From assembly GCA_965204745.1 (NCBI GenBank), contig OZ242010.1:3659767-3723766 (forward strand): DNA of 64,000 bases, read 5' to 3'. A program made the translations under genes and the position numbers. The number at the start of each line of letters is the position of its first letter. Within the stretch, counting starts at the first letter, position 1. The stretch comes from Candidatus Latescibacterota bacterium (GTDB taxonomy: Bacteria > Latescibacterota > UBA2968). Below the pieces are notes generated by a model. It did no database searches. It saw only the letters and a program-made list of their open reading frames with translations, and was not told where the DNA came from. Shown one piece after another: positions 8,512-64,000 of the stretch.

Positions 8512-8894
8512 GCGGTCCGTGCAACGTTGCCCTTCCGCGCCGCCGTGTCTGAATCGCGGATTAAACGGATTAGGGGATTGCGCGGATTACCACCCACCGC
8601 CCTACCGCCATAGACCTATCCCCCCGGCCCCCGTTATTCGCTTCGCTCATTGTAGGCTACGCCTGTGCCTACAAGGAAAGGGGGAGCGCATGGCTTTTTG
8701 AAGGTTTATATCCCTGTCTGTTTTGATGGCTTTGCGCGAATGGATCACGCCATAGAAACCCAAACCCCTCTCGCGTAAATCTCTCGCAAGACCCATCGCC
8801 ATTCCCCCTTGTATCTTCCTCGCAGGCACAGGCGTAGCCTACAACGAAGCGTAGCGAGTAACGGGGATTAGGGGGGTAAGTCCCGATTTGTGCA

Positions 8895-14488: not shown

Positions 14489-14719
14489 AATGCGAATTAA
14501 GAGTAGAAAACGAGTAAGAAGCAAGCCGCGGCCAATCGCCCAAAGACCTCAACGAGTCATCCATTATAGAATCGCCCCTTAGAACTTGTCTGAAAACAAA
14601 CGATGCCCTCTCCTCCGGCTCCTCCCCGCAACGCAGAGACGTTATTCCCCCCTTCCTCGCAGGCACAGGCGTAGCCTACAACGAAGCGTAGCGAGTAACG
14701 GGGGTTAGGGGGGTAGGTC
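14489..14719. mobile_element. Truncated copy of MITE family B (TIR aatgcgaattaagag), next to a (CAGTAGT)x3 array
   Basis: Collinear with the reverse complement of 29781-30054 and with 18942-19269. Only the left TIR is present; the hairpin module A forms the right end. Confidence 0.5.
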
Positions 14720-14721
14720 AC

Positions 14722-18846: not shown

Positions 18847-18941
18847 CCATCATCATTCCGGCGTAGGCAGGCACGCGCAAGCACAACGCAAGTAATCCAG
18901 TGACTTTCCGGCGGTTGGGCGGGGACTGACAACTGACAATG

Positions 18942-19269
18942 CGAATAAAGCGTTGCATCCATTTATTGGGACCTACCCCCCTGGCCCCCCTTCCTCACAG
19001 AAAGGGGGGAATGGCGAGAGGTTGTGCGAGGGGTTTGGGTTTCTAGGGCGTGATCTATTCGCTCAAAGCCATCAGAACAGCTAGGGAGACAAACCTTCAA
19101 AAAGCCATGCGCTCCCCCTTTCCTTGTAGGAAAGGGGGCCGGGGGGATAGGTCCTACGAGAAAGGGGAAGAACATCTCTCGTTGCGGAGATGCGCCGGAT
19201 GACTCGTCCATGTCTTTGGGCGATTGGTCTCGGCTTGCTTCCTACTCGCTTTCTACTCTTTATTCGCAT
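18942..19269. mobile_element. MITE family B copy (TIRs aatgcgaataaag / ctttattcgcatt), embedded between CTGACAA arrays
   Basis: Both TIRs are present. The interior holds hairpin modules (ccccccttcctcacagaaagggggg; cccctttccttgtaggaaaggggg) shared with 29781-30054. Confidence 0.55.
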
Positions 19270-19312
19270 TGACAACTGACCACTGACAACTACCTTCCCA
19301 AAGAAACTCCCC

Positions 19313-20761
19313 ATGAAAAAACTCATCCTCCTCATCCTCCTCATCCTCCTCACCAGCGCGCCGCTTCGGGCTGATGAAGTCCAGCGCCAAACTGCTGTGA
19401 ACGCGATGGTGAAGGCCACGCGCTATTTTCGCACGCATGTCGCCACAAATGGCGGGTACTTGTGGCGGTACAAAACCGACTTCTCCCTGCGCGAGGGCGA
19501 AGGTACGGCGTCTGCCACTACGATTTGGGTGCAACCCCCCGGCACGCCTTCGGTGGGCATGGCCTTGCTCGCGGCGTATGAAGCCACGCGCGATACCCTG
19601 TTTCTCAATGGCGCGGTGGATGCGGCGCACGCGCTCGCTTGGGGGCAACTCGCGTCGGGCGGTTGGGATTATCGCATCGAGTTTGACGCGGGCCAAAGCA
19701 ACCGCTGGCACTATCGCCGGGATCTTGAGCGGGGCGATATACAGACAGATGACCGCCGCAATCGCACCACGTTAGACGACAACACCACGCAAAGCGCGTT
19801 GCAACTGCTGATGCGCGTCGACAAAACACTCGGGTTCGAGGATGCGAAAATCCACAGGGTCGTGCAATTTGGCCTCGACGCCCTGCTCAAAGCGCAGTAT
19901 CCAAATGGCGCGTGGCCGCAGCGGTTTGAAGCGTTTCCGGATCCGGAAAAGTTTCCAATCAAAAAAGCGCGTTACCCCAAAACCTGGCCGCGAACCCATC
20001 CGGATACGCGCTATGTGGATTATTACACGTTCAACGACAATGCGATTGCCGACGTGATTGAGACGATGATCGAAGCCCACGCGATTTACGGCGATGCGCG
20101 CTATTTGGACGCGGCCATACGCGGAGGTGATTTCATGTTGCTCGCGCAGATGCCCGCGCCACAACCCGCGTGGGCGCAACAGTACAATCTGGACATGGAG
20201 CCGACTTGGGCGCGGCGATTTGAACCGCCGGCCATCACCGGGTGCGAGAGTTTTGGGGTTATGCAAACGCTGTTGGACTTGTACATTCAAACTGGGATGC
20301 AACGCTTTCTCGATCCCATTCCCCCCGCGCTCGATTGGGCCAAACGCTCGCGCTTGGCCGATGGGCGCATAGCCCGTTTTTACGAACTCCAGACCAATCG
20401 CCCCCTGTATTTTACCCGCGATTACGCGCTCACGTACAGCGACGCGGACCTGCCCACGCATTACGCATTCAAGGTGGGTGGCAGCCGGCTCGAGCGGACC
20501 GAGAACTTGTACCAGCGCGTCAAAGCAGAAGGCAGGGAAACGCTATTGGCAGAACGCGGCCGCGTCTCGGCGCCAAGTGTCGAACAAGTACGACAAATCA
20601 TCGCCGCACTCGACGACCAAAACCGCTGGGTGGAACGCGGCTCCTTGCGAAATCCACACAATCGGCGGGAACGCATCGCCGCAGAAATTCTCTCGTGCCG
20701 CACGTTCAACCGCAATCTCGAAGTGCTGGCGCGCTATGTCAAAGGACGAACAGACGAATAG
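19313..20761 (+). CDS. Secreted (alpha/alpha)6-toroid protein, PL10-like pectate-lyase family candidate
   Basis: Signal peptide MKKLILLILLILLTSAPLRA. HVATNGGYLWRY... motif as in PelA/PL10-like proteins. The family assignment is from memory only. Confidence 0.45.
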   Translation: MKKLILLILLILLTSAPLRADEVQRQTAVNAMVKATRYFRTHVATNGGYLWRYKTDFSLREGEGTASATTIWVQPPGTPSVGMALLAAYEATRDTLFLNGAVDAAHALAWGQLASGGWDYRIEFDAGQSNRWHYRRDLERGDIQTDDRRNRTTLDDNTTQSALQLLMRVDKTLGFEDAKIHRVVQFGLDALLKAQYPNGAWPQRFEAFPDPEKFPIKKARYPKTWPRTHPDTRYVDYYTFNDNAIADVIETMIEAHAIYGDARYLDAAIRGGDFMLLAQMPAPQPAWAQQYNLDMEPTWARRFEPPAITGCESFGVMQTLLDLYIQTGMQRFLDPIPPALDWAKRSRLADGRIARFYELQTNRPLYFTRDYALTYSDADLPTHYAFKVGGSRLERTENLYQRVKAEGRETLLAERGRVSAPSVEQVRQIIAALDDQNRWVERGSLRNPHNRRERIAAEILSCRTFNRNLEVLARYVKGRTDE

Positions 20762-20780
20762 ACGAATCTGTGTCTTTGAA

Positions 20781-21242
20781 CTAGGTCGTGTTGACATTTT
20801 ATTTTTTTAGGTCACGCACAGATTAGCAAATGTGTTGCTTGCTCATTTAATGCGTTTCCTTTGATGGCTTCTATCTCTGGTTGCTCTGATGGCGGTGCGC
20901 GTGGGGACTATCCCCCGGCCCCTTTCCTACGAGGAAAGGGGAGTAAAGTGCCTTTGATGGCTTCTCGCTCTGGGTTGCTCTGATGGCGGTGCGCGAGGGC
21001 ATAAAGCGATTAAATATCCCTCATCAATCCCCTCGCAAAACCGCTCACAGTTCCCCCTTCCTCACAGGCACAGGCGTAGCCTACAACGAAGCGAAGCGAG
21101 TAACGGGGGTTAGGGGGGTAGGTCCCGATAAGGAGCGACTGTTCCAGTTTCTCAAATCGAGAGCATATCCTGAGATAGGGCTTGATTTTCTCGATAAACC
21201 GCTCAAGCCGGTGCATGGCTCGTAAATGTCAACATAACCTAG
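20781..21242. mobile_element. MITE family A copy (~460 bp) with 19-bp terminal inverted repeats ctaggtYRtgttgacattt
   Basis: Left end ctaggtcgtgttgacattt (20781-20799); right end the reverse complement of ctaggttatgttgacattt (21224-21242). The interior contains hairpin modules A/B. The 80-aa ORF 20983..21225 is probably not coding. Confidence 0.55.
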
Positions 21243-21336
21243 TCAGCCCCCACACGACAACCCCGAACCCGATGCAATTTGATGAGCGGCTATGGCGATT
21301 GTACTCCGCTCCGTTGATTCGTAAATAGGAGAAACT

Positions 21337-21729
21337 ATGCCCCGCCTCTATTTCGCGGCACTTTTCAGCCTGTTGATGGCGTGTCAGGATCCGCCAGCGC
21401 AAAAAGCCGAACCGCCTCAACGCCCGCAATTCACTGCGGCAGAGCTCGAAAAGGGTCAGGCCCTATACACAAAATACGGGTGTGCGGTTTGCCACGGGCG
21501 CAATGGCCGCGGCAATGGGCAGATCGCGCGCACGCTCAACCCCAGGCCCCGCGACTTTCACGATCCCACGGTGTACAAATACGGTCGCTCGGTCGAGGCT
21601 GTTTCGCGCACCATCCTCAACGGCGCGCTCAATGAACGGGGCATGGGCATGCCGGGCTATCCCCAAATCCCAGAAGAAGAACGCAGGGCTATCGCCGCGT
21701 TTATCGTCTCCCTCCAGGGTCAGGATTAA
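21337..21729 (+). CDS. Class I c-type cytochrome lipoprotein
   Basis: Lipobox LLMAC. Single CAVCH haem-binding motif. Confidence 0.75.
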   Translation: MPRLYFAALFSLLMACQDPPAQKAEPPQRPQFTAAELEKGQALYTKYGCAVCHGRNGRGNGQIARTLNPRPRDFHDPTVYKYGRSVEAVSRTILNGALNERGMGMPGYPQIPEEERRAIAAFIVSLQGQD

Positions 21730-21740
21730 AGGATTTTTAG

Positions 21741-22184
21741 ATGTACCTCCTTTTCTTAATCGTGCTTTTGGGGATGGGATGCGAGGGACAGGACGCGACC
21801 TATCTCACCATCAAAAACCCACGGGTGCGCGAGAACATTCCACCGCAGAGGATCACGGCGGCGTATGTGTCGATCCACAATCGCGGGCCGGCAACCGCGC
21901 TCATCTCTGCATCCACGCCCGCGGCTGAGGTCGCAGAAATCCATGTGATGACCACCGATGGCAATATGATGCGGATGAAAAAAATCAACCGGTTGCCCAT
22001 CCCGGCACGCGGCTCGGCAACCCTACAACCCGGCGGCAATCACCTCATGCTCATCGGCCTCAAGCGCGACCTGACACCGGGCGATTCCCTCGCCCTCACC
22101 CTCACCTTCGCAAATGACCACGTACAGACGGTCTGGGCACACATCCTTTCAACTTCACAGATAAACGCAGATGGACACAGATAG
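21741..22184 (+). CDS. Copper chaperone PCu(A)C (DUF461)
   Basis: Lipoprotein N-terminus. H-x-M ... M-x-M pattern (IHVMTTDGNMMRM) typical of PCuAC. Adjacent to SCO1. Confidence 0.7.
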   Translation: MYLLFLIVLLGMGCEGQDATYLTIKNPRVRENIPPQRITAAYVSIHNRGPATALISASTPAAEVAEIHVMTTDGNMMRMKKINRLPIPARGSATLQPGGNHLMLIGLKRDLTPGDSLALTLTFANDHVQTVWAHILSTSQINADGHR

Positions 22185-22204
22185 AATGCAAAAAATCAAA
22201 GTAT

Positions 22205-22530
22205 TATTTTTTTCGCACCTGTCAGGGCAACGATGGATCGGTCAACACACCCGTCAGGGCAACGATGGATCGGTCAACGCACCCGGCGGCGTGGGGATAG
22301 GTTGGAAACGCACAAGGCGGCGCAGAGGTAGGTTGGGCACGCACATGGCGGCGCGGTGGCGAGGTTGGGCACGTACAAGGCGGCGTGGTGGCAGGACAGG
22401 GAACGCACAAGGCGGCGTGGTGGCAGGACAGGGAACGCACAAGGCGGCGTGGCGGCGAGGCGGGGAACGCACAAGGCGGCGAGGCGGCAGGACAGGGAAC
22501 GCACAAGGCGGCGAGGCGGCGAGGCGGGGC
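22205..22530. repeat. ~32-bp minisatellite, ~10 degenerate tandem copies (gcacaaggcggcgtggtggcaggacagggaac)
   Basis: Units share the gcacaaggcggcg core and diverge gradually. The region is stop-free in all six frames. Repeats are contiguous with no spacers, so this is not CRISPR. Confidence 0.7.
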
Positions 22531-23112
22531 CTGCTCTTTACACTCTGCACCCTACACTTGTTTTTAGTCGCCTGTCAACCCCTTGAACGCACGCCGCAAG
22601 TCGATTCCGATCTCGCGCTTTCCGCTGAACCGTATGCTTTTGGGGGCGATTTTACGCTGATCGATCACGATGGCAATGCCTTCCGCTTGGCGGAGCAACA
22701 GCGTCCGTTTTTCCTCTTTTTGGGCTATGCGAGTTGTCCGGATGCCTGCCCGCAAACGCTGGCGCGTCTCGCCCGCGTGTACGCGCTTTTGGGCGAGGAG
22801 GCACGCGATCTCGGCACGCTTTTTGTCAGCGTGGATGCCGAACGCGATTCGCCCGCTGTGCTCAAAACCTATTTGTCGCACTTTGACGTGCCCGCCATTG
22901 GCCTGACCGGGGCGCAGGATAGTATTGACGCGGTGGTCAAACGCTATGCTGCCCACTATGAAATCAACGATCAGGCATCCGCCGCGGGGTATCTCATCGA
23001 CCATTCGCTCTACATCTACCTCATCGATCAACACGGCGATTCGCGCTTCTTCTTTCGCCCCTCGCATACCGCCGAAGAAATCGCCACCGTCGCCCGACAG
23101 TTGTTTCGCTAA
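22531..23112 (+). CDS. SCO1/SenC family copper chaperone (thioredoxin-like); 5' boundary uncertain
   Basis: C-x-x-x-C-P motif (ASCPDACP). Lipoprotein-like LLFTLCTLHLFLVAC. The only in-frame starts are CTG at 22531 or an ATG deep inside the minisatellite. Confidence 0.6.
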   Translation: MLFTLCTLHLFLVACQPLERTPQVDSDLALSAEPYAFGGDFTLIDHDGNAFRLAEQQRPFFLFLGYASCPDACPQTLARLARVYALLGEEARDLGTLFVSVDAERDSPAVLKTYLSHFDVPAIGLTGAQDSIDAVVKRYAAHYEINDQASAAGYLIDHSLYIYLIDQHGDSRFFFRPSHTAEEIATVARQLFR

Positions 23113-23147: not shown

Positions 23148-23360
23148 TTGATTACCGTCCATTTACCTTCTGAAATCGAGCAACGCATTGCGGACCTCGC
23201 CGCTCGAACTGGCCGTACCGAGACATTCTACATTGAGGAAGCCATCATGGAATACTTGGATGAACTGGAAGATAAATACTTGGCATTAAATCGCTTGGAG
23301 AATCCCACCAAACGCTGGACATTGGATGAAATGGAGCAAGGCATTGACAGTTGCGTTTGA
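23148..23360 (+). CDS. RelB/DinJ-family ribbon-helix-helix antitoxin-like protein
   Basis: TTG start with AAAGGAG RBS. N-terminal RHH (ITVHLPSEIEQRIADLAARTG) and a C-terminus RLENPTKRWTLDEME similar to RelB RLRNPKPVRVTLDEL. No RelE-like gene follows; instead it overlaps the methyltransferase gene by 35 bp. Confidence 0.6.
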   Translation: MITVHLPSEIEQRIADLAARTGRTETFYIEEAIMEYLDELEDKYLALNRLENPTKRWTLDEMEQGIDSCV

Positions 23361-24471
23361 CAACCGCGCTGTGCCGCCCACAGAGGGGATCAAGTATGCG
23401 GGGTCTAAGTTGAAGCTCCTTCCGCATATCTTGCAACTGGCCGCAAAGGTCGGGGCGAAGACGGTGTTGGATGGGTTCTCGGGGACGACAAGGGTGTCGC
23501 AGGCACTCGCCAGATCGGGGTATGCGGTCGTCTGCAACGATATTGCCGCGTGGTCTGAAATTTTTGGGATGTGCTATTTGCTCAATCAAAAGAAGCGGTC
23601 GGATTACCAACCGCTCATCGATCACCTCAATGCCGTGCGGCCCGTGGATGGATGGTTCACGCAACACTATGGCGGATATCCCAACGAGGGTTGCGCGATT
23701 CAGCGCGATGGGCGCAAGCGGCCATGGCAGATTCACAACACCCGAAAGCTGGATGCGATTCGGGAGGAGATCGAGGCCCTCGCGCTCGATCCCGTCGATA
23801 AGGCCGTGGCACTGACGAGCCTAATTTTGGCACTCGACCGCGTGGATAGTAGCCTCGGGCACTTTGTCTCGTATCTCAAAGACTGGTCCCCGCGCTCCTA
23901 CAAAAAACTCGAACTCAAAGTGCCATCTGTCTTTCCGTCCTCTGGGGAACATCGCGTGTTCCGAAAGGACATTTTTGACCTCGCGCCGCGCATCGACACG
24001 GACTTGGCGTATTTCGATCCGCCGTATGGATCGAACAATGAGAAAATGCCGCCATCGCGCGTGCGCTATGCGTCTTATTACCACGTCTGGACGAGCGTCA
24101 TTCTCTACGATAAACCCGCCCTTTTCGGCAGGGCCAATCGCCGCGTTGATACGTCTGACCCGGTGGCGGCATCCGCGTTTGAGGAGTTCAGACGCAACGC
24201 AAATGGTCGCTTCATCGCGGTCGAAGCCATTGAGAAACTCATCGCTACGACGCGAGCGCGCCATGTCATCTTGTCGTACAGTTCTGGAGGCAGGGCAACA
24301 GCCAAAGCGTTGAACGACGCGATGCAATGTCACGGCAGGCTTTTGGATGTGGTCGCGATCAATTATCAGAAAAACGTGATGGCGGGCATGACGTGGACGC
24401 ACGAATGGCTACGAGAGGTCGATCACCCAAACCGAGAGTTCTTGTTCTTGCTCGAAAAGCAACGTGCTTGA
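23326..24471 (+). CDS. Dam-like (D12 class, alpha-group) N6-adenine DNA methyltransferase, orphan
   Basis: IKYAGSK (SAM-binding region, cf. Dam FLKWAGGKY), FSGTT, and the DPPY catalytic motif (AYFDPPYG). Start either ATG 23326, overlapping relB, or GTG 23369. Confidence 0.8.
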   Translation: MKWSKALTVAFDNRAVPPTEGIKYAGSKLKLLPHILQLAAKVGAKTVLDGFSGTTRVSQALARSGYAVVCNDIAAWSEIFGMCYLLNQKKRSDYQPLIDHLNAVRPVDGWFTQHYGGYPNEGCAIQRDGRKRPWQIHNTRKLDAIREEIEALALDPVDKAVALTSLILALDRVDSSLGHFVSYLKDWSPRSYKKLELKVPSVFPSSGEHRVFRKDIFDLAPRIDTDLAYFDPPYGSNNEKMPPSRVRYASYYHVWTSVILYDKPALFGRANRRVDTSDPVAASAFEEFRRNANGRFIAVEAIEKLIATTRARHVILSYSSGGRATAKALNDAMQCHGRLLDVVAINYQKNVMAGMTWTHEWLREVDHPNREFLFLLEKQRA

Positions 24472-24765: not shown

Positions 24766-25746
24766 ATGATTGAACGATACTCAAACGCCATTATTCAAGG
24801 CGATTGTTTAGAATTGCTAAAAACAATGCCCGATAACTCGGTAGATGTCGCGTTTGCGGACCCACCCTTTAACCTCAAAAAATCCTACAATAGCTACAAA
24901 GATCGCCGAAAACTCCGAGAATATTTGGACTGGTGCGAACTTTGGATAACCGAAATGGTTCGCATTGCCAAACCAACGGGCAGTATTTTTGTCCACAACA
25001 TACCGAAATGGCTCACATTTTATACGGCGTATCTGAATAAAATTGCCGATTTCAAGCACTGGATAAGTTGGGACGCGCCGACCGCACCAATGGGAAAAAC
25101 CCTGCAACCCTCGCATTATGGGATTTTATTTTACGCCAAAGACATCGAACAATTGAAATTTTATGAAATTCGTTATCCGCACAAACGCACGCGAAAAGAA
25201 GGGCTATTGGCAAAAGATTACGGCGGCAAAAAAAGACTCTTACACCCATTCGGCCCTCTCGTGTCCGATGTGTGGACGGATATTCACAGGGTCAAGCACA
25301 ATAAATACAGAGACAAACACCCCTGCCAGTTGCCCATACATTTATTGGAACGCATCATTTTAATGTCCTCAGATGAGGGCGATATCATTCTCGATCCCTT
25401 TAGTGGCACGGGCACAACGGCGTTGGCTGCCAAGCGTTTGGGCAGAAATTTCATCGGTTTTGAATTGGACGACAAATACGTTGAAATAACGCAAAATAAA
25501 CTTTTGCAAGAGAAGATGAGCTCGAAATTGGGTCGCTGTTGGGTCAGTTTTTATCTGGATAAATTGGTCACCTTAAGAGACGAAGATTGGAATGACATAA
25601 AAGAATTTTTCCACATTCCATCTCAAATTGAAAAGATAGATCTCATGCCGATTGTCTTAAAATCAAACGCGGCGAGTTCCATATCTTCCGAAAAAAATGG
25701 GAATAATCGCAAAGACGCGCTCCAAGAAGAACTCACATTGTCTTAG
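24766..25746 (+). CDS. Beta-class DNA methyltransferase (N4-cytosine or N6-adenine), low-GC, orphan
   Basis: DPPF catalytic motif (FADPPFN) precedes the FSGTGTT SAM motif, which is the beta-class order. Markedly AT-rich relative to the flanks. C-terminal ~70-aa extension of unknown function. Confidence 0.8.
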   Translation: MIERYSNAIIQGDCLELLKTMPDNSVDVAFADPPFNLKKSYNSYKDRRKLREYLDWCELWITEMVRIAKPTGSIFVHNIPKWLTFYTAYLNKIADFKHWISWDAPTAPMGKTLQPSHYGILFYAKDIEQLKFYEIRYPHKRTRKEGLLAKDYGGKKRLLHPFGPLVSDVWTDIHRVKHNKYRDKHPCQLPIHLLERIILMSSDEGDIILDPFSGTGTTALAAKRLGRNFIGFELDDKYVEITQNKLLQEKMSSKLGRCWVSFYLDKLVTLRDEDWNDIKEFFHIPSQIEKIDLMPIVLKSNAASSISSEKNGNNRKDALQEELTLS

Positions 25747-29780: not shown

Positions 29781-30054
29781 AATGCGAATTAAGAGTTGAA
29801 TCCATTGCGTACTTGTCTTTTTTTGGACCTACCCCCCTAACCCCCGTTACTCGCTACGCTTCGTTGTAGGCTACGCCTGTGCCTGCGAGGAAGGGGGGAA
29901 TAACATCTCTCCGTTGCGGGGATGAACCGGAGGAGGGAACATCGTTTTTTTTAGACAAGTTCTAAGGGGCGATCCTATAATGGATGAGTCGTTCATGTCT
30001 TTGGACGATTGGTTGCGGCTTGCTTCTTACTCGCTTTCTACTCTTAATTCGCAT
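29781..30054. mobile_element. MITE family B copy with intact TIRs aatgcgaattaagag / ctcttaattcgcatt
   Basis: Reverse-complement collinear with 14489-14719 and 18942-19269. Contains hairpin module A. Confidence 0.55.
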
Positions 30055-30134
30055 TGACCACTGACCGCTTGGGGTGCTGGGTAGCCCTCTTACGTCTTCC
30101 CTCTCCCGTCTCACTTGCGGAAGGGCGGTGCGGG

Positions 30135-30173
30135 GACTGACTACTGACTACTGACTACTGACTACTGACTACT
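30135..30173. repeat. (CTGACTA)x5 heptamer array
   Basis: gggactgactactgactactgactactgactactgactacttgg. Confidence 0.9.
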
Positions 30174-30403
30174 TGGGGTGCTAGGCGGTCCTCTTGTATC
30201 TTTGGGCGAGCACGGGGGCATCGCCCCTACATATATATCGCTCACCTTTGAACTGGCTATCGCCAGTTGTACACCGCTCGTGCCTTCTGTGCCTTTTGTG
30301 GCTAAAATCCCGTCTTCCCTCTCCCGTCTCACTTGCGGAAGGGCGGCGCGGGGACTGACAACTGACAACTGACAACTGACAACTGACAACTGACAACTGA
30401 CAA

Positions 30404-31581
30404 CGGCGTTGTTGCATAAATGTTGTCGTGGCTAAGTTCGTCCCTTTCCCGCGAAATTTAAGCCCTTCTTTCTATGGGATAGGACACGGGTTTCGCGATC
30501 CTCATCATGCGATTGAGCACCGCACATCCCAACCGTGCTTCCGTTTCTTGGTTCTTCTTTTTTCGTGCGCGCAACTGCCGCCCAATGAGTTGTTTGTAGC
30601 GGCCTATGTGGGTTTCAACGACCGAGCGACGATGATAGCCACTGGTGCGTTTCCACTGTCGGCGGCCTTGACGCCGGATGGCTCGGATGATTTCATCGCG
30701 GGCGAGGGGGGGTGCCTTCCTGTTTCCGTGTTGTTCAATTTTGGCATCATGGCGCGGGGGAATCAGAGGTCGGATGGGGGCTCCTTGTTTGGGGGCGGCG
30801 CATGTGTTGAAGACCTTGCGTTTGTCATAGCCGCCATCGGCGCCCAGCGTATGGACAGGGGCCGGGACTTGATCGAGCAAGGGGTTGACCTGCGAAGCGT
30901 CATCAACGCTTGCCGAGGTCAGGGTCTGTGCGACAATCTCCCCGGTGGCCTCATCGACGCCGATGTGCAATTTGCGCCAAGTCCGGCGCTTGCAAAAGCC
31001 GTGTTGACGCACCTTCCATTCGCCTTCGCCATACACTTTCAGGCCGGTAGAATCCACCACCAAGTGGATCGGCTCGTGACGGGATTGGACAGGTAAATCC
31101 ACGTTCAAATCGCCCTGTCGCCGGCAGAGGGTCGTGTGATCGGGCACACGCAAATCCACCCCCATCAATGCCAGGATGGACTTGAGAAACCCCTCGGTTT
31201 GACGCAGGGGCAAGGCATAGACCAAGCGCACCATCAATGCCGTTTGAATAGCCAAATCTGAAAAGGTGTTTTGCCGCCCCCGTTGCGTTGGCCCTTGATG
31301 GTACCAGTTCCGAAGGGCTTGCGGCGTGATCCAAAACGTCAGACTGCCCCGCTGCTTGAGACCGGCCTCGTAGGCCGCCCAGTTCCTAACCCGATAGACA
31401 GGCGCACAGCGCGGGCGACGCGGGGACTTGACGGCGGGTTTGGAAGCGGTTATCTTGGGCATGACAGGTTCCTGGTGAGAAAGGGTGAGTTGTTTTGGTG
31501 ATCTATATGCCCAATCTACGAAGGAGCCTGTCTTTTTGCAATCCCAACTTGCAGGAAATTGCTATTTATGCAACAACGCCA
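30404..31581 (-). mobile_element. Complete IS5-family insertion sequence (~1.18 kb), inserted in a (CTGACAA)n array
   Basis: Perfect 17-bp terminal IRs ggcgttgttgcataaat (30404-30420) and atttatgcaacaacgcc (31565-31581). (CTGACAA)x7 on both flanks; removing the IS plus one AC restores the heptamer phase, consistent with a 2-bp duplication. Confidence 0.8.
30458..31462 (-). CDS. IS5-family DDE transposase
   Basis: 334 aa, MPKITASKPAVKSPRRPRCAPVYRVRNWAAYEAGLKQRG... typical IS5-family N-terminus. Confidence 0.85.
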   Translation of the reverse strand: MPKITASKPAVKSPRRPRCAPVYRVRNWAAYEAGLKQRGSLTFWITPQALRNWYHQGPTQRGRQNTFSDLAIQTALMVRLVYALPLRQTEGFLKSILALMGVDLRVPDHTTLCRRQGDLNVDLPVQSRHEPIHLVVDSTGLKVYGEGEWKVRQHGFCKRRTWRKLHIGVDEATGEIVAQTLTSASVDDASQVNPLLDQVPAPVHTLGADGGYDKRKVFNTCAAPKQGAPIRPLIPPRHDAKIEQHGNRKAPPLARDEIIRAIRRQGRRQWKRTSGYHRRSVVETHIGRYKQLIGRQLRARKKKNQETEARLGCAVLNRMMRIAKPVSYPIERRA

Positions 31582-31650
31582 CTGACAACTGACAACTGAC
31601 AACTGACAACTGACAACTGACAACTGACAACTGACCACTGGAGCCTCTCT

Positions 31651-32643
31651 ATGCTACGCACCTGCGTCATCGGCCTCGGCCCAATCGGCAACCGGCACGC
31701 CGACATCTACGTCGAAAATGAACGCGCCGAACTCATCGGCGTGTGCGACATTGACGAAACCCGCGCCAATGCCGCCGCCGCCCGCTTGGGCATAACCGCA
31801 TTTTACAATGTTCAGAAAATGCTCGATGAATGCCGGCCCGATGTGGTCAGCGTGGCCACGGGCGGGTATGAATACAGCAGCGACCACTACGCGCCCACCA
31901 TGCAAGCCCTCGAGGCGGGTTGCCACGTCTTAGGCGAAAAGCCCATCTCCAACAGCATTGCCCACGGCGGAGAAATGGTCGCCAAAGCCAAAGAAATGGG
32001 CGTGTGTTATGGCATTGACCTCAACCACCGCTTTACCCCTGCGGCGCGCCTCGCCAAGAAGTGGGTGGACGAAGGCCGCTTGGGCCATCTGCTCTTTGTC
32101 AACATGGCGATGTGGATCATGAACCCGGCAGAGAGTTCGCCGTATTACCACCTCAAAGCCCTGCATCCGCACACGATTGACGTGATGCGCTATTTTTGCG
32201 GGGATGTGGAAGCGGTTCACTGTTTTGCCACCAAAGCGCCGGGGCGCGCGATCTGGTCGACCGCGCAGTTCAACATGCGGTTCACAAACGGCGTGGTCGG
32301 CTCGCTCACGGGCAGTTACGACATCGAGCGCGGCCATCCGATGGAACGTTGCGAAGTCGCAGGCACAGGCGGGCGGTTTGTCCTCGAAGACATGTGGCAC
32401 GAACTCACCTTGTACCCGGCGGGCGAGTTGGAAAAAACCGTGTACACGGACCCGGCATTTGGCGGGTTTGGCGATTTTATCGACACGTTCCGAGACCGCA
32501 TCGACACCTTTCTCCGCGAGGTCGGCGCCGGGGTCGCGCCCGAGGATATCGACGGCTCTGCCGAAGATGCCTTGGCCGCGCAAAAAGTCATTGCCGCAGC
32601 CATAGAATCGCTGGATGCGGAAACCGTTGTTTACGTGAAATAG
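31651..32643 (+). CDS. Gfo/Idh/MocA family oxidoreductase
   Basis: N-terminal Rossmann fold VIGLGPIGNRHA. EKP catalytic motif (HVLGEKP). Confidence 0.8.
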   Translation: MLRTCVIGLGPIGNRHADIYVENERAELIGVCDIDETRANAAAARLGITAFYNVQKMLDECRPDVVSVATGGYEYSSDHYAPTMQALEAGCHVLGEKPISNSIAHGGEMVAKAKEMGVCYGIDLNHRFTPAARLAKKWVDEGRLGHLLFVNMAMWIMNPAESSPYYHLKALHPHTIDVMRYFCGDVEAVHCFATKAPGRAIWSTAQFNMRFTNGVVGSLTGSYDIERGHPMERCEVAGTGGRFVLEDMWHELTLYPAGELEKTVYTDPAFGGFGDFIDTFRDRIDTFLREVGAGVAPEDIDGSAEDALAAQKVIAAAIESLDAETVVYVK

Positions 32644-41569: not shown

Positions 41570-41810
41570 AACTCCTCCAACCCCAAGTAGTCAGTAGTCA
41601 GTTGTCAGTCCCCGCACCGCCCTTCCGCAAGTGAGACGTGAGACGCAAGAGGGCCACCCGGCACCCCAAGTGGTCAGTGGTTAGCCCCCGCCCAACTCCT
41701 CCAACCCCAAGTAGTCAGTAGTCAGTAGTCAGTCCCCGCACCGCCCTTCCGCAAGTGAGACGTGAGACGCAAGACGGGAGAGGGCCACCCAGCACCCCAA
41801 GCACTCAGTG
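41570..41810. repeat. Tandem duplication of a ~120-bp composite unit ((CAGTAGT)n + ccccgcaccgcccttccgcaagtgagacgtgagacgcaaga...gagggccacc.agcaccccaag)
   Basis: Two adjacent copies, a third at 42600-42730, and reverse-orientation copies at 30062-30135 and 30311-30354. Confidence 0.7.
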
Positions 41811-41875
41811 GTCAGCAAAACAAGCGGTGGATAGTGAGGGTCGAAAGCTGATGGTTGTCTTTCAAAGGAATCCCC

Positions 41876-42565: not shown

Positions 42566-42858
42566 AAGACACGACAAGGAGTGCGAATGGGCAAACCCTG
42601 CCCAACCGCTGCGCCCAAGTAGTCAGTAGTCAGTGGTCAGTGGTCAGTGGTCAGTCCCCGCACCGCCCTTCCGCAAGTGAGACGTGAGACGCAAGACAGG
42701 AGAGGCCCGCCCAGCACCCCAAGCGGTCAGCGGTCAGTGGTCAGCCCACCCCGCCGCCCTGTCTCATTAGTCGTAGGGAGTTGCCTCTCAAGGCCGTTCA
42801 ACGGTCAGTTGTCACCCCGTTCTCTTTCATCTTTCAACCGATCTCTTTGGAGTCCATC

Positions 42859-56057: not shown

Positions 56058-56385
56058 AACCCTCCCTCGATGCGATGGGTTGACAAGAATAAGACGGGGG
56101 TTATATTGTGCTGTGCAAGCGCGGAGAGCGCATCTCTCTGGCGCGTGCGCGCGGATGATCGGCGATGGCCAGGCAAGTCAGAACCGATCATCCTTTTTTT
56201 GTCAGTTGGGCTTTATTGTTTTACTAATAAAACAACCGCCCAAAGAATAAAACAGATGTTAAAACTTGTCAACAATTTTTTGCAATCATCGCCGTTCATC
56301 CCTGCTTACCACGCAGAGACATGCCTGTGGTTGCTTTTTTCGCTTTTCAAAACGCTTGAATTTTCAGCCTAAGCGCGTATTTTAG

Positions 56386-56504
56386 CAAGAGGCAAGAGGC
56401 AAGAGGCAAGAGGCAAGAGGCAAGAGGCAAGAGGCAAGAGGCAAGAGGCAAGAGGCAAGAGGCAAGAGGCAAGAGGCAAGAGGCAAGAGGCAAGAGGCAA
56501 GAGG
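56386..56504. repeat. (CAAGAGG)x17 heptamer array abutting the RBS of the downstream oxidoreductase gene
   Basis: The array ends ...caagaggCAAGGAGatcgacATG; the last unit grades into the AAGGAG Shine-Dalgarno of the 56518 gene. Confidence 0.95.
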
Positions 56505-56517
56505 CAAGGAGATCGAC

Positions 56518-57495
56518 ATGTCGAATGGATTAAAGGTCGCGGTGATCGGGGCGAGTGGCATTGGGCAACACCACGCGCGATGGCATCACTTGTCCGGGTC
56601 TCAAGTGGTGGCATTTGCAGGCACGTCGAAAGAAACGTGTGCGAAAACCCGATCCCTGTTGCAGGCGGACTTTGGCTTTGATGGCCGTGCGTACACGGAC
56701 GTGGCGCGCATGCTCAAAGCCGAACAACCCGACGTGGTCGATGTGTCTAGCCCGCCGCATTTGCACAAAGACCACGCGATTTTGGCATTGCAAAGCGGAT
56801 GCCATGTGGTGTGTGAAAAACCCCTGTGTTGGGACGAGGACAAGGGCTTGGACGCGATTTTGGACGATGGACGCGCCGTGGTGGATGCGGCGAAACAGGC
56901 GGGCAAATCCCTGGCGATGTCTGCCCAATATGCCGCGGCGATCCCGATGTATCGCCAACTCTACACGCGGGCGAGAGGCGCGTGGGATCGCGTTGACTCG
57001 GTCGAGATGGTCATGGAATCGAAGGGGCGCAGGGGGCCGAAAGCGCGAGAAGAGATCTGGATCGATCTCGCTTCCCATCCCTTGAGCTTGGTCTTTGGCT
57101 TTTTGCCCGATGGGGAAATCGACTGGTCGAGCGCGGCGTGTGAGATTGGCGAGCGGGAAAATCGCGCACGATTTGACGTGCTCACGCCCAAAGGCCGATG
57201 CGCCGTGCAATTCGCGTTGCGCGACAGGGACGAGGGCGTCCCCATCCGACAATTCGGCGTCAATGGCTTTTTGGTCAACTGGGAGGGCTTTGCCGACGAG
57301 GAGGGGATTTATCGCGCACGCCTCTCAGCCGATGGCGAGACCGCGACTTGCCCGGATTTTATGCACATTTTCATCGGCGAATTTGCCGAGCACATCCGCG
57401 GCACAGGCGGGCAGGTCATCGTTTCCGGCGCGGACGCCCTGAAGAATTTGCAGGCTCAAATCGCGCTGCTCAAGCGCGCGGACAGGCGGGTGTGA
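56518..57495 (+). CDS. Gfo/Idh/MocA family oxidoreductase
   Basis: VAVIGASGIGQHHA Rossmann fold. VVCEKP. Confidence 0.8.
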   Translation: MSNGLKVAVIGASGIGQHHARWHHLSGSQVVAFAGTSKETCAKTRSLLQADFGFDGRAYTDVARMLKAEQPDVVDVSSPPHLHKDHAILALQSGCHVVCEKPLCWDEDKGLDAILDDGRAVVDAAKQAGKSLAMSAQYAAAIPMYRQLYTRARGAWDRVDSVEMVMESKGRRGPKAREEIWIDLASHPLSLVFGFLPDGEIDWSSAACEIGERENRARFDVLTPKGRCAVQFALRDRDEGVPIRQFGVNGFLVNWEGFADEEGIYRARLSADGETATCPDFMHIFIGEFAEHIRGTGGQVIVSGADALKNLQAQIALLKRADRRV

Positions 57496-61410: not shown

Positions 61411-61471
61411 TACCTCAGCGAATCAACGAATCAACGAAGTGCGTCGGGTTTTGGGGCTGTTGGGCGGGGAC

Positions 61472-61762
61472 TGACTACTGACTAGGTTCTGTTGACATTT
61501 ACGAGCAAAGCAACTGGCTTGAGCGGTTTTGCGAGGGGGACCTACCCCCTAACCCCCTTCCTAAGAGGAAGGGGGAACGGTGATGGGTCTTCCGAGGGAT
61601 TGCTCGAGAGGTTTTTTGGGTTCTATGGCGTGATCCATTCGCCCAAAGCCATCAAAGGAGCTTTACTCCCCTTTCCTCGTAGGAAAGGGGCCGGGGGATA
61701 GGTCCCCTCGCGCTTTGCTAATCTGTGCGTAACGTGAAAAAAATGAAATGTCAACACAACCT
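61472..61762. mobile_element. MITE family A copy (~290 bp, internally deleted, reverse orientation), flanked by CTGACTA arrays
   Basis: TIR ctaggttctgttgacattt (61472-61490) and aaatgtcaacacaacctac (61744-61762). Interior shares hairpin modules with 20781-21242. Confidence 0.5.
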
Positions 61763-61904
61763 ACTGACTACTGACCACTTGGTGGTCGGGTTGGGCGGGA
61801 AACTTGCTACGCATGTGGTCTATTTTTGATTGTGCTTGACGGGGTTGCGTCTTGAAACTTAACATTGTCCCTCCACTTTTAACCCTTAATTCATCGAGGT
61901 AAAT

Positions 61905-63099: not shown

Positions 63100-64000
63100 A
63101 TGGCAGAATACGATACGATTCCCAAGCAGTTGATTCGCATCTACCCGCAAGACCTCATCCGCTTGGCTCTCGGACGCGAGGATGTCGAAATTGAAGTTGA
63201 AGAAATTCTCGACACCGAACTCCCCAGGGTTGAAACGCGCCTGGTCGATAGCCTCCTTCGCGTGCGGATCGATGGCAAGGAAGCCTTGGTTCACATCGAA
63301 TTTCAAACCGCCGACAGCGCGGATATGGCTATTCGCCTGGCTTCCTATATCATCCGACTCATCGAGCAGTATGGCTTGCCGGTCTATTCCTTTGTCATCT
63401 ACCTGCGTCCCAATGCCGGGCACCGCGATAAAGGATACTACACGCAAGAACTTCCCGGTCATCGCGTCTTTGTCGAGTACAAGGTGCTTCGGTTGAGCGA
63501 GATGGACGGGCGAGGCATTCTTGAAGGCGGTCAGGCAGGCTTGCTTCCTTTCGCGCCATTGATGAAGCCGCCTGTGGGGATGGGTTCCGAGGATTGGTTG
63601 CGCGAGTGTGTTCGCAAGAGCGATTCGGTTTCGTTGGATCAAGCAGACAAGGCGAATTATTTGAGTAGCTTGGCGGTCTTGAGTGGGTTGGCGTACGATC
63701 CAAGCACCATCACGCGGATTCTTTCACAGGAGGGTCTTATGGACGCGATTATGCGTGAGTCATCGTTTGCCCAGTACCTCGAGGAACGCGGCATCGAGCG
63801 CGGCATCGAGCAGGGAATCGAGCAGGGAATCGAGCAAGGGGGTAGAGAACATACCATTGACGCTATCCTCGACGTGTTGGAGGTTCGTTTTGATCCGGCC
63901 GTTGCCGGTCAGTTCGCCGGTCGTATTGCGGTTATCGACGATTTGCAACGGCTCAAGCGGTTGCTTCGCTCGGCAGTGCAAGTGGATGATCTGGCGGCCT
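63100..64000 (+). CDS. Rpn-family recombination-promoting nuclease / putative transposase (PD-(D/E)XK, C-terminal DUF4351), 3' end beyond the window
   Basis: GGAGG RBS then ATG 63100. VHIEFQ core motif. C-terminal ERGIERGIEQGIEQGIEQG repeats typical of Rpn/YhgA-like proteins. No stop before 64000. Confidence 0.6.
   Translation, partial: MAEYDTIPKQLIRIYPQDLIRLALGREDVEIEVEEILDTELPRVETRLVDSLLRVRIDGKEALVHIEFQTADSADMAIRLASYIIRLIEQYGLPVYSFVIYLRPNAGHRDKGYYTQELPGHRVFVEYKVLRLSEMDGRGILEGGQAGLLPFAPLMKPPVGMGSEDWLRECVRKSDSVSLDQADKANYLSSLAVLSGLAYDPSTITRILSQEGLMDAIMRESSFAQYLEERGIERGIEQGIEQGIEQGGREHTIDAILDVLEVRFDPAVAGQFAGRIAVIDDLQRLKRLLRSAVQVDDLAA

Follow-up and report, generated by a model that had tools for sequence, protein, structure and literature searches.

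Two families of miniature inverted-repeat transposable elements, very probably of IS5- and IS982-type origin, in the heptamer arrays of a Candidatus Latescibacterota genome

Insertion sequences of the IS5 family duplicate 2-4 bp of target DNA, and the size of those in the IS427 group is about 800-1000 bp (ISfinder description). Members of the IS982 family duplicate 3-9 bp and have inverted repeats that start with AC (ISfinder). Some insertion sequences target a repeat family of the host; for example, IS1397 and ISKpn1 target bacterial interspersed mosaic elements (BIMEs). Within the IS5 family, what characterises the IS427 group is a pair of overlapping open reading frames (ORFs) that contain a frameshift motif (PMC3281130). 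Miniature inverted-repeat transposable elements (MITEs) derived from IS5 elements, some of them with nested repeats, are also documented, namely BrickBuilt/MITEPgRS in Porphyromonas gingivalis and ATR/ISNme1 in Neisseria (PMC4596501; PMC3281130). The current work deals with a stretch of 64,000 nucleotides from a Candidatus Latescibacterota bacterium (contig OZ242010.1 of assembly GCA_965204745.1), called here the window. It contains two families of short elements, A and B, situated at tandem arrays of the heptamer CTGACNA and enclosing GC-rich hairpin units.

Families A and B are, with high probability, MITEs that derive from IS5- and IS982-type elements, respectively, and that inserted into pre-existing heptamer arrays; members of a hairpin repeat family are nested in them. 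Both families are real and active and have moved recently. They are an ordinary kind of mobile DNA, and a kind that is already known; only mildly unusual are the occurrence of the family A repeat across phyla and the use of the arrays by three transposon families.

We compared the window with loci labelled L001-L146, of which L004-L085 come from a genome scan for family A and L143 is ENA ERZ25068400. Orthologous loci of sister strains, about 97-98% identical to the window, were obtained by exact-protein look-up and cover the sites of A1, A2 and B1. Such look-ups with seven window proteins gave no match, so that the comparison is confined to these three sites. None of the loci retrieved from other species covers a part of the window, and tblastn with window ORFs against the remaining loci yielded distant matches only. 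Expected numbers of repeats in the window were estimated from shuffles.

The pattern CTAGGTNNTGTTGACATTT occurs four times in the window, while 0.08 occurrences are expected. The four sites form two inverted pairs, 20781-20799(+)/21224-21242(-) and 61482-61500(+)/61746-61764(-). The true terminal inverted repeat is the 16-mer GGTYNTGTTGACATTT, bordered by a duplicated TA. An earlier note on this stretch had included a leading CTA in the repeat; these letters are target DNA (the TA duplication plus one flanking base) and therefore the elements span 20784-21239 (456 bp) and 61485-61761 (277 bp). The left boundary of the second element is thus 61485 and not 61472, the surplus bases being heptamer units. 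The family A features are as follows.

20784-21239, minus strand: MITE A1, 456 bp; the inverted repeats of the parent are 21224-21239 (left, IRL) and 20784-20799 (right, IRR)
20782-20783 and 21240-21241: TA duplications of A1
21145-21213, minus strand: transposase remnant of A1, HRLERFIEKIKPYLRICSRFEKL, 23 codons of the catalytic-E region, reading inward from IRL
20904-21125, no strand: hairpin doublet nested in A1, composed of GGGACTATCCCCCGGCCCCTTTCCTACGAGGAAAGGGG on the left and a long-variant unit with GGCACAGGCGTAGCCTACAACGAAGCGAAGCGAGTAAC on the right
61485-61761, plus strand: MITE A2, 277 bp, inverted relative to A1, with a nested doublet at 61538-61705
61483-61484 and 61762-61763: TA duplications of A2, which splits a CTGACTA/CTGACCA array

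An ORF on the minus strand of A1 begins 7 nt inside the repeat 21224-21239 and reads MHRLERFIEKIKPYLRICSRFEKL. Its residues 2-24 match HRVECFINKIKWYRRIFSRFEKL of OrfB from L016, a long element with family A ends (74% identity over 23 aa, E 3e-5, tblastn). Therefore the 21239 side is the left end of the parent, joined to the catalytic-E region. The 20784 side is the right end of the parent, with a subterminal CATTTTT similar to that of L079, another long element. A1 and A2 have in common about 50 nt at each end and a part of the interior; A2 is indeed inverted and shorter, as the earlier note had it, and retains just the first few codons of the remnant. A 68-aa ORF of A1 (21010-21216, minus strand) is the transposase remnant fused to hairpin-unit sequence. 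A related assembly lists this ORF among its genes (L143, 2174-2380); a gene call inside A1 is probably a spurious annotation.

Outside the window, the family A repeat was searched for in one genome per bacterial species, with the end repeat plus a degenerate subterminal stretch as a query. At least 82 stretches matched, against about 4 expected by chance according to our own calculation. The hosts, among the matches listed, include Poribacteria, Dehalococcoidia, Caldilineaceae, Desulfobacterales, Pyrinomonadaceae, Methylococcales and others. The following statistics on pairs and ends are drawn from the matches listed and from the window. There are at least 50 inverted pairs, the window included, at least 48 of them in other genomes. 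TA lies directly outside both ends in 46 of 50 pairs. Among 120 ends, T occupies position -2 in 117 and A position -1 in 119; further out, 111 ends have C or T at -3 and 63 have A at -4. Thus the preferred outer flank of family A is ACTA, i.e., a YTAR target whose central TA is duplicated.

Most family A pairs are 112-471 bp apart and non-coding, and at least eight pairs are 807-859 bp apart. The same 16-mer thus bounds both the MITEs and elements of 807-859 bp. Three of the long elements were read (L016, L069 and L079), and each has two ORFs. In L079 the first ORF matches Pfam DUF4096 and the second DDE_Tnp_1. Against the NCBIfam profile NF033580 "IS5 family transposase" (cutoff 110), orfB scores 160.2 bits and orfA 109.2 bits, covering profile positions 108-258 and 4-114, respectively. 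The two ORFs overlap in L079 and L069, and the overlap in L079 holds CAAAAAAGG, a classic A6G slippery site.

In its architecture the family A parent appears to resemble the IS427 group: it is about 810-860 bp long, has overlapping DUF4096 and DDE_Tnp_1 ORFs with a frameshift motif, short repeats that start with GG and a very short duplication, whose 2 bp lie within the range of the IS5 family. Its repeat is GGTTCTGTTGACATTT and its target is strictly TA/YTAR, and the parent has been seen in other phyla only. The nearest annotated plasmid homologues of its transposase are about 50% identical and are labelled just "IS5 family transposase". Like BrickBuilt, family A has only its ends in common with the parent and carries foreign repeats inside (a minisatellite in BrickBuilt); unlike BrickBuilt, which has no piece of a transposase gene, A1 retains one.

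The exact 16-nt end GGTTCTGTTGACATTT is common to elements from at least eight phylum-level groups among the matches listed (L004-L085), and many of the hosts are metagenome-assembled genomes labelled Poribacteria, Dehalococcoidia or Caldilineaceae. This distribution suggests that one IS5 lineage and its MITEs have spread widely by horizontal transfer. Elements of other phyla with family A ends have no heptamer arrays alongside.

For family B, the pattern AATGCGAATWAAGAG has five occurrences in the window (0.19 expected), at 14489(+), 18938(+)/19256(-) and 29781(+)/30041(-). The ends are ATGCGAATWAAGMGT and the target duplication is 5 bp. There are three copies.

18939-19269, plus strand: MITE B1, 331 bp, flanked by the duplication TGACA (18934-18938 and 19270-19274) within an ACTGACA array
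18969-19154 and 19182-19253: interior of B1, i.e., a nested doublet and a C-terminal transposase remnant, respectively
29782-30054, plus strand: MITE B2, 273 bp, with a TGACCAC array as right flank and no recognisable duplication
29825-29899 and 29958-30038: interior of B2, i.e., a single long hairpin unit and a C-terminal transposase remnant, respectively
14490-14720, minus strand: MITE B3, truncated, with the right end only, the left end being lost; adjoins (GTCAGTA)3
14506-14595: transposase remnant in the interior of B3, which terminates in a long hairpin unit

In each of the three copies, the last 24-30 transposase codons persist just inside the right end; the best match of such a remnant has 74% identity over 27 aa (E 1e-6, tblastn). 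A scan of metagenome contigs with the query ATGCGAATWAAGMGTWGMAWVC returned 42 loci. Pairs of family B ends were found in 22 places in these contigs and, additionally, in the sister-strain locus L087. Most of the metagenome pairs are 984-1077 bp apart. The 15-mer end of the MITEs therefore also bounds IS982-type elements of about 1 kb. Two of these were read, L096 and L111, with one ORF each, listed at 335 and 320 aa. Against NCBIfam NF033520 "IS982 family transposase" (cutoff 130), L111 scores 140.8 bits and L096 scores 112.6, which is under the cutoff. A perfect 5-bp direct repeat lies outside the ends in 7 of 25 family B pairs, including B1 (TGACA) and the L087 copy (TACTG).

A full-length IS982-type transposase gene is present in the sister strain L143. 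It is called at 297 aa, matches DDE_Tnp_1 and DDE_Tnp_1_3, and shares 60% identity with L111 over the N-terminal 121 aa (E 2e-52). The left end of this element, ATGCGAATTAAGAGTTGAATCCATCGCGTACTTGTCTTTTCTTG, equals the left end of B2 over 43 nt, until the nested hairpin unit of B2 starts. Therefore the autonomous partner of family B is present in the species, though outside the window. A tblastn search of the window revealed no intact partner for A or B, in agreement with the earlier note.

The family B parent is similar to IS982 elements in its size of about 1 kb, its single DDE ORF, the above-cutoff NF033520 score of L111, its 5-bp duplication and a stop codon that overlaps the right inverted repeat. 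It differs from them in repeats that start with AT instead of AC, and it is only about 26% identical to Lactococcus IS982 transposases. We know of no described IS982-derived MITE, and no search was made for one.

Both families thus have the traits of MITEs that the earlier note had attributed to them, although in corrected registers: inverted repeats, target-site duplications, a common deletion architecture, and presence or absence among sister strains. The junctions show TA at A1 and A2, TGACA at B1 and none at B2. The elements are short (456, 277, 331 and 273 bp), within the range of about 50-1000 bp of MITEs, contain transposase remnants of 23-30 codons and no transposase gene, and occur in several copies, two of family A and three of family B in the 64-kb window and more in sister strains. 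Paired repeats also recur elsewhere, as described above, in at least 48 places for family A and in 22 places plus L087 for family B.

With high probability, the two families originated as follows. The ancestor of family A was an IS5-family element of about 810-860 bp with overlapping DUF4096 and DDE_Tnp_1 ORFs, an A6G site and the inverted repeat GGTTCTGTTGACATTT, which inserted at YTAR with duplication of the central TA. A1 keeps IRL, 23 codons of the catalytic-E region and IRR of this ancestor. Family B came from an element of the IS982 family that measured about 1.0 kb, had one ORF of about 300-335 aa and ATGCGAATTAAGAGT as its inverted repeat, and duplicated 5 bp of the target; the MITE copies keep 43 nt of its left end and about 120 nt of its right end with the last 24-30 codons. 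Both families, as well as an unrelated IS5-type element, inserted into CTGACNA arrays that were already there, and the inverted 40-nt GC-rich hairpin units in the interiors constitute a third, separate repeat family. The repeats, duplications, remnants and partner families are observed directly, as are the uninterrupted arrays and the differences in presence described below; mobilisation of the MITEs in trans, the chemistry of transposition and the reason why families other than A favour arrays are inferred.

The relation between elements and arrays was assessed by comparison with sister strains. The following features are relevant.

61466-61780, plus strand: target array (CTGACTA)n(CTGACCA)n, split by A2 in the window, with 3-7 units of varying type in sister strains
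30405-31580, minus strand: complete element of the IS5 family, 1176 bp; its inverted repeat is GGCGTTGTTGCATAAAT, and it encodes a transposase of 334 aa (30458-31462)
826 to about 1245: truncated copy of the IS5-type element, which adjoins one array

At the site of A2, seven sister-strain sequences with both flanks (L086, L089, L132, L133, L134, L136 and L137) have an unbroken GGGGA(CTGACTA)n(CTGACCA)n array of 3-7 units. In L087 and L139 the same array contains a family B MITE, and in the window it contains family A. A deletion of A2 together with one TA, or of the L087 copy together with one TACTG, gives back a perfect array, and so does an excision of B1 with one copy of its duplication. 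The order of CTGACTA and CTGACCA units at this site differs between strains. The short-read contigs L088, L135 and L141 start within the orthologous array; the insertions probably explain the breaks of short-read contigs at such sites in this species.

A1 has a pectate-lyase-like gene (19313-20761, Pfam Pec_lyase) on one side and a gene for cytochrome c (21337-21729) on the other. It is present in L002, L143, L144 and L146. In L001 and L003 it is absent: a heptamer array, ...GTGGTCAGTGGTCAGT, lies directly at the same right flank, and the upstream genes differ. The array 5' of the pectate-lyase gene contains B1 in the window, with its right end facing the gene, and the full IS982-type element in L143, with its left end facing the gene. 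Both show the junction of CGCAT with TGACAAC. These were therefore two independent insertions.

The arrays are thus pre-existing targets that were hit repeatedly, and not termini of the elements, because the same array is found unbroken, with family B or, in the window, with family A. The earlier note had left both possibilities standing, landing pads or carried termini; only the former agrees with these data. A2 and B1 have arrays on both sides and B2 and B3 on one side, while A1 touches one heptamer unit only (TAGTCAG, 21240-21246). The IS5-type element at 30405-31580 (NF033579, 326.8 bits; Pfam DDE_Tnp_1_5 and DDE_Tnp_1) lies in an ACTGACA array with arrays on either side; it is unrelated to families A and B as a partner. 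The claim that every copy and both IS5 copies abut an array therefore holds inside the window, for A1 by a single unit, but it does not extend to the copies in L132 and L001. Since perfect arrays (at least two CTGACNA units) total just 455 bp of 64 kb, chance does not account for the eight ends or elements that landed there independently.

For family A, insertion into arrays has a simple and sufficient cause, because a CTGACTA array repeats the ACTA flank every 7 bp. This preference is not absolute. Three of the four family B insertions in arrays have the phase TGACN in common; IS982-type copies of AT-rich contigs sit in AT-rich pentamers, and no strict target motif emerges. Many arrays have no element at all. 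Heptamer arrays were absent from about 130 loci of other taxa in which we searched for them, and a search of the literature on heptanucleotide repeats returned only unrelated Geobacter repeats.

The CTGACNA arrays may be true multi-family hot spots that attract at least three unrelated DDE transposons, namely the family A MITE, the IS982-type element with family B, and the 1.2-kb IS5-type element, with a cause beyond the ACTA match, for instance slipped or bent DNA or a bound host protein. We put this reading forward tentatively and lean slightly against it. If it is true, the arrays would be safe harbours and would divert transposons from genes. The situation is similar to that of insertion sequences targeting BIMEs in that transposons target a host repeat family. 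It differs in that the targets are tandem heptamers instead of palindromes and that three transposon families use them.

Some arrays belong to a recurrent composite intergenic unit, in which GTGAGAC-type heptamers are followed by a CCCCGCCC/GGGCGGGG motif and then by CTGACNA heptamers (41586-41815, 42618-42745 and 30055-30400 in the window; 2640-2850 in L001). The arrays 2697-2757, 31582-31653 and 56385-56527 stop a few bases 5' of a ribosome-binding site and a start codon.

The sequence specific for family A is confined, in A1, to about 50 nt at either end. The interior, 20857-21133, is 88-91% identical to 2349-2687, so the modules also occur free-standing, as had been noticed before. Two free-standing examples are listed here.

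2370-2692, no strand: free-standing hairpin cluster composed of the doublet 2370-2559 and a further half; adjoins the array 2697-2742
8612-8883, no strand: free-standing doublet of long-variant units

The building block is a 40-nt unit, GGACCTAYCCCCC-NNN-CCCC-TTCCT-NNN-AGGAA-GGGG, found at 2370, 2547, 8612, 8871, 14708, 18969, 19142, 20904, 21113, 29825, 61538 and 61693. Units form inverted doublets of 170-270 bp (2370-2559, 8612-8883, 18969-19154, 20904-21125 and 61538-61705), and the doublet 2370-2559 folds as one long hairpin (z = -3.7). The long variant has GTTACTCGCTWCGCTTCGTTGTAGGCTACGCCTGTGCC in place of the left hairpin arm. This 38-nt core is near-identical in 7 of 8 long units (five from the window, L002 and L087), the one from L001 being short by 2 nt. 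The variant differs even between homologous family B copies, B1 having the short form and its counterpart in L087 the long form.

Hairpin units have no duplication, and GCGAGG or ATCG recurs directly outside them. They sit at MITE deletion junctions as well as free-standing. Among about 140 loci they were found in this species only, and a search in about 130 loci of other taxa did not reveal them. In form they resemble repetitive extragenic palindromic (REP) sequences, BIMEs and REPINs rather than a third DDE MITE family: they are GC-rich palindromes of about 40 nt, intergenic, arranged in inverted pairs and mosaic clusters, without duplication. A possible difference is that GTAG, which occurs in ...GGGGGGTAGGTCC, is located 3' of the hairpin on that strand and not 5' as in REP/BIME. 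The units could be an independently mobile REPIN-like family that colonises MITE deletion junctions.

Mosaics of the modules differ between strains. At L001 9213-9432, a stretch similar to window positions 8540-8620 and a long hairpin unit come after a solitary family A repeat, CTAGGTCGTGTTGACATTC. The repeat modules recombine into different combinations. In L132 (14465-14676) a hairpin doublet and an end with the left inverted repeat of the parent, followed by TA, replace 12 nt of L086 and L087. The left junction of this partial copy falls in a 13-nt stretch, AAAGCGCGAGGGG, common to the chromosome and the element interior, which suggests a deletion or recombination after insertion.

Several other explanations should be weighed. 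The units could be insertion sequences that decayed in place, each locus holding an independent remnant that was never mobile as a short element. Both families do contain transposase remnants, and the truncated B3 and the lone family A repeat of L001 show that decay in situ occurs. However, A1 and A2 have the same ends with a hairpin doublet between them; B1, B2, B3 and the L087 copy have a common right end of 120 nt and a common left end of 30-43 nt; duplications are intact around short elements; and their presence differs between strains that are 97-98% identical. We consider such decay very unlikely. A more serious but still unlikely alternative is that the interior modules are the functional part, as a small RNA or a regulatory or terminator hairpin, and that the inverted repeats are incidental. 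The strong conservation of the 38-nt core and the good folding of the doublet agree with this, but any inverted repeat folds well. Rfam gives nothing over the whole window at the gathering threshold and nothing over 20700-21350 even at E <= 1; the search for tRNAs found none; and a promoter/terminator scan found neither a promoter-like site nor a terminator-like T-run within A1. Moreover, both orientations relative to genes occur, and the end repeats are demonstrably transposon ends.

Two further alternatives have almost no probability. An origin of family A from the IS630/Tc1-mariner superfamily would be in line with the TA duplication and the palindromic YTAR (CTAG-like) target, the only traits in common with MITEs of that superfamily, and an origin from IS6/IS26 with full elements of about 810 bp and with the repeat GGTTCTGTTG..., which resembles IS257/IS26 ends. 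Both origins are ruled out by the protein that the full-length elements encode: L016, L069 and L079 have exact family A ends and two ORFs, those of L079 being DUF4096 and DDE_Tnp_1 (NF033580), and the A1 remnant matches an IS5-type protein. IS6 elements, besides, duplicate 8 bp and not 2 bp. The arrays, in turn, could belong to the elements, carried as termini or made upon insertion, as nearly every element end in the window touches an array. The seven unbroken sister-strain arrays rule this out. In addition, the adjacent heptamer variant (CTGACAA, CTGACTA or CTGACCA) follows the local array and not the element, many array sites have no element, and elements of other phyla have the same repeats without arrays.

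Some observations weigh against the derivation from IS5- and IS982-type parents and insertion into arrays, or at least narrow it. The placement of family A near the IS427 group is putative, being based on architecture and a family-level profile. No full-length family A partner has been seen in this species, whose source genome was itself outside the genome scan and was not searched. B2 has no recognisable duplication, and 18 of the 25 family B pairs have no perfect one. The window directly contains just 2-3 copies per family. Finally, two sister-strain copies of family A lie outside arrays, the partial one in L132 (14465-14676) and the lone repeat in L001 (9213). The derivation of both families as MITEs nevertheless remains highly probable to us.

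Other features near these loci also vary between strains. The 1.4-kb segment 24497-25898 (G+C 48%) is missing from L002, which is 98% identical on either side. Within it are the longest array, (AACTGAC)14, and a second ORF similar to DNA methyltransferases (24766-25746, 326 aa). The segment is flanked by a 6-bp direct repeat AGCGCG, adjoins the existing methyltransferase gene 23326-24471 and has the appearance of a microhomology indel. A G-rich repeat of 32 nt is present in eight tandem copies (22276-22529) in the longest ORF listed for a SCO1/SenC-like gene (22171-23112, 313 aa), whose called length varies (L001, 276 aa; L143, 308 aa; L002, 141 aa). A 309-aa ORF that contains IEQG repeats, and for which no Pfam match is recorded, is located 3' of a dehydrogenase gene in L087 (6932-8640), L132 and L135; in L086 (6910-7353) and L088 a 117-aa ORF replaces it, so this segment is strain-variable, and the window is collinear with L087 there until its end at 64000. 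L132, which belongs to a related 5.28-Mb genome, has beyond the region covered by the window a serine-resolvase gene (MerR/HTH and Resolvase) followed by a gene with a Cas12f1-like_TNB domain (19626-20894), a layout similar to that of IS607-type elements. The gene content of the source genome includes sulfatases, PhyH proteins, TonB-dependent receptors and a pectate lyase.

The intergenic repeat clutter of the window is thus largely explained as three layers, i.e., heptamer arrays, the MITEs and the IS5-type element inserted in them, and nested hairpin units. The insertions serve as strain markers, and the family A end, found across many phyla, can be used as a search key for the IS5 lineage and its MITEs. 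A single array of 30-50 bp has been struck independently by different transposon families across strains, which makes these arrays a natural system to test how DDE transposases choose their targets at tandem repeats.

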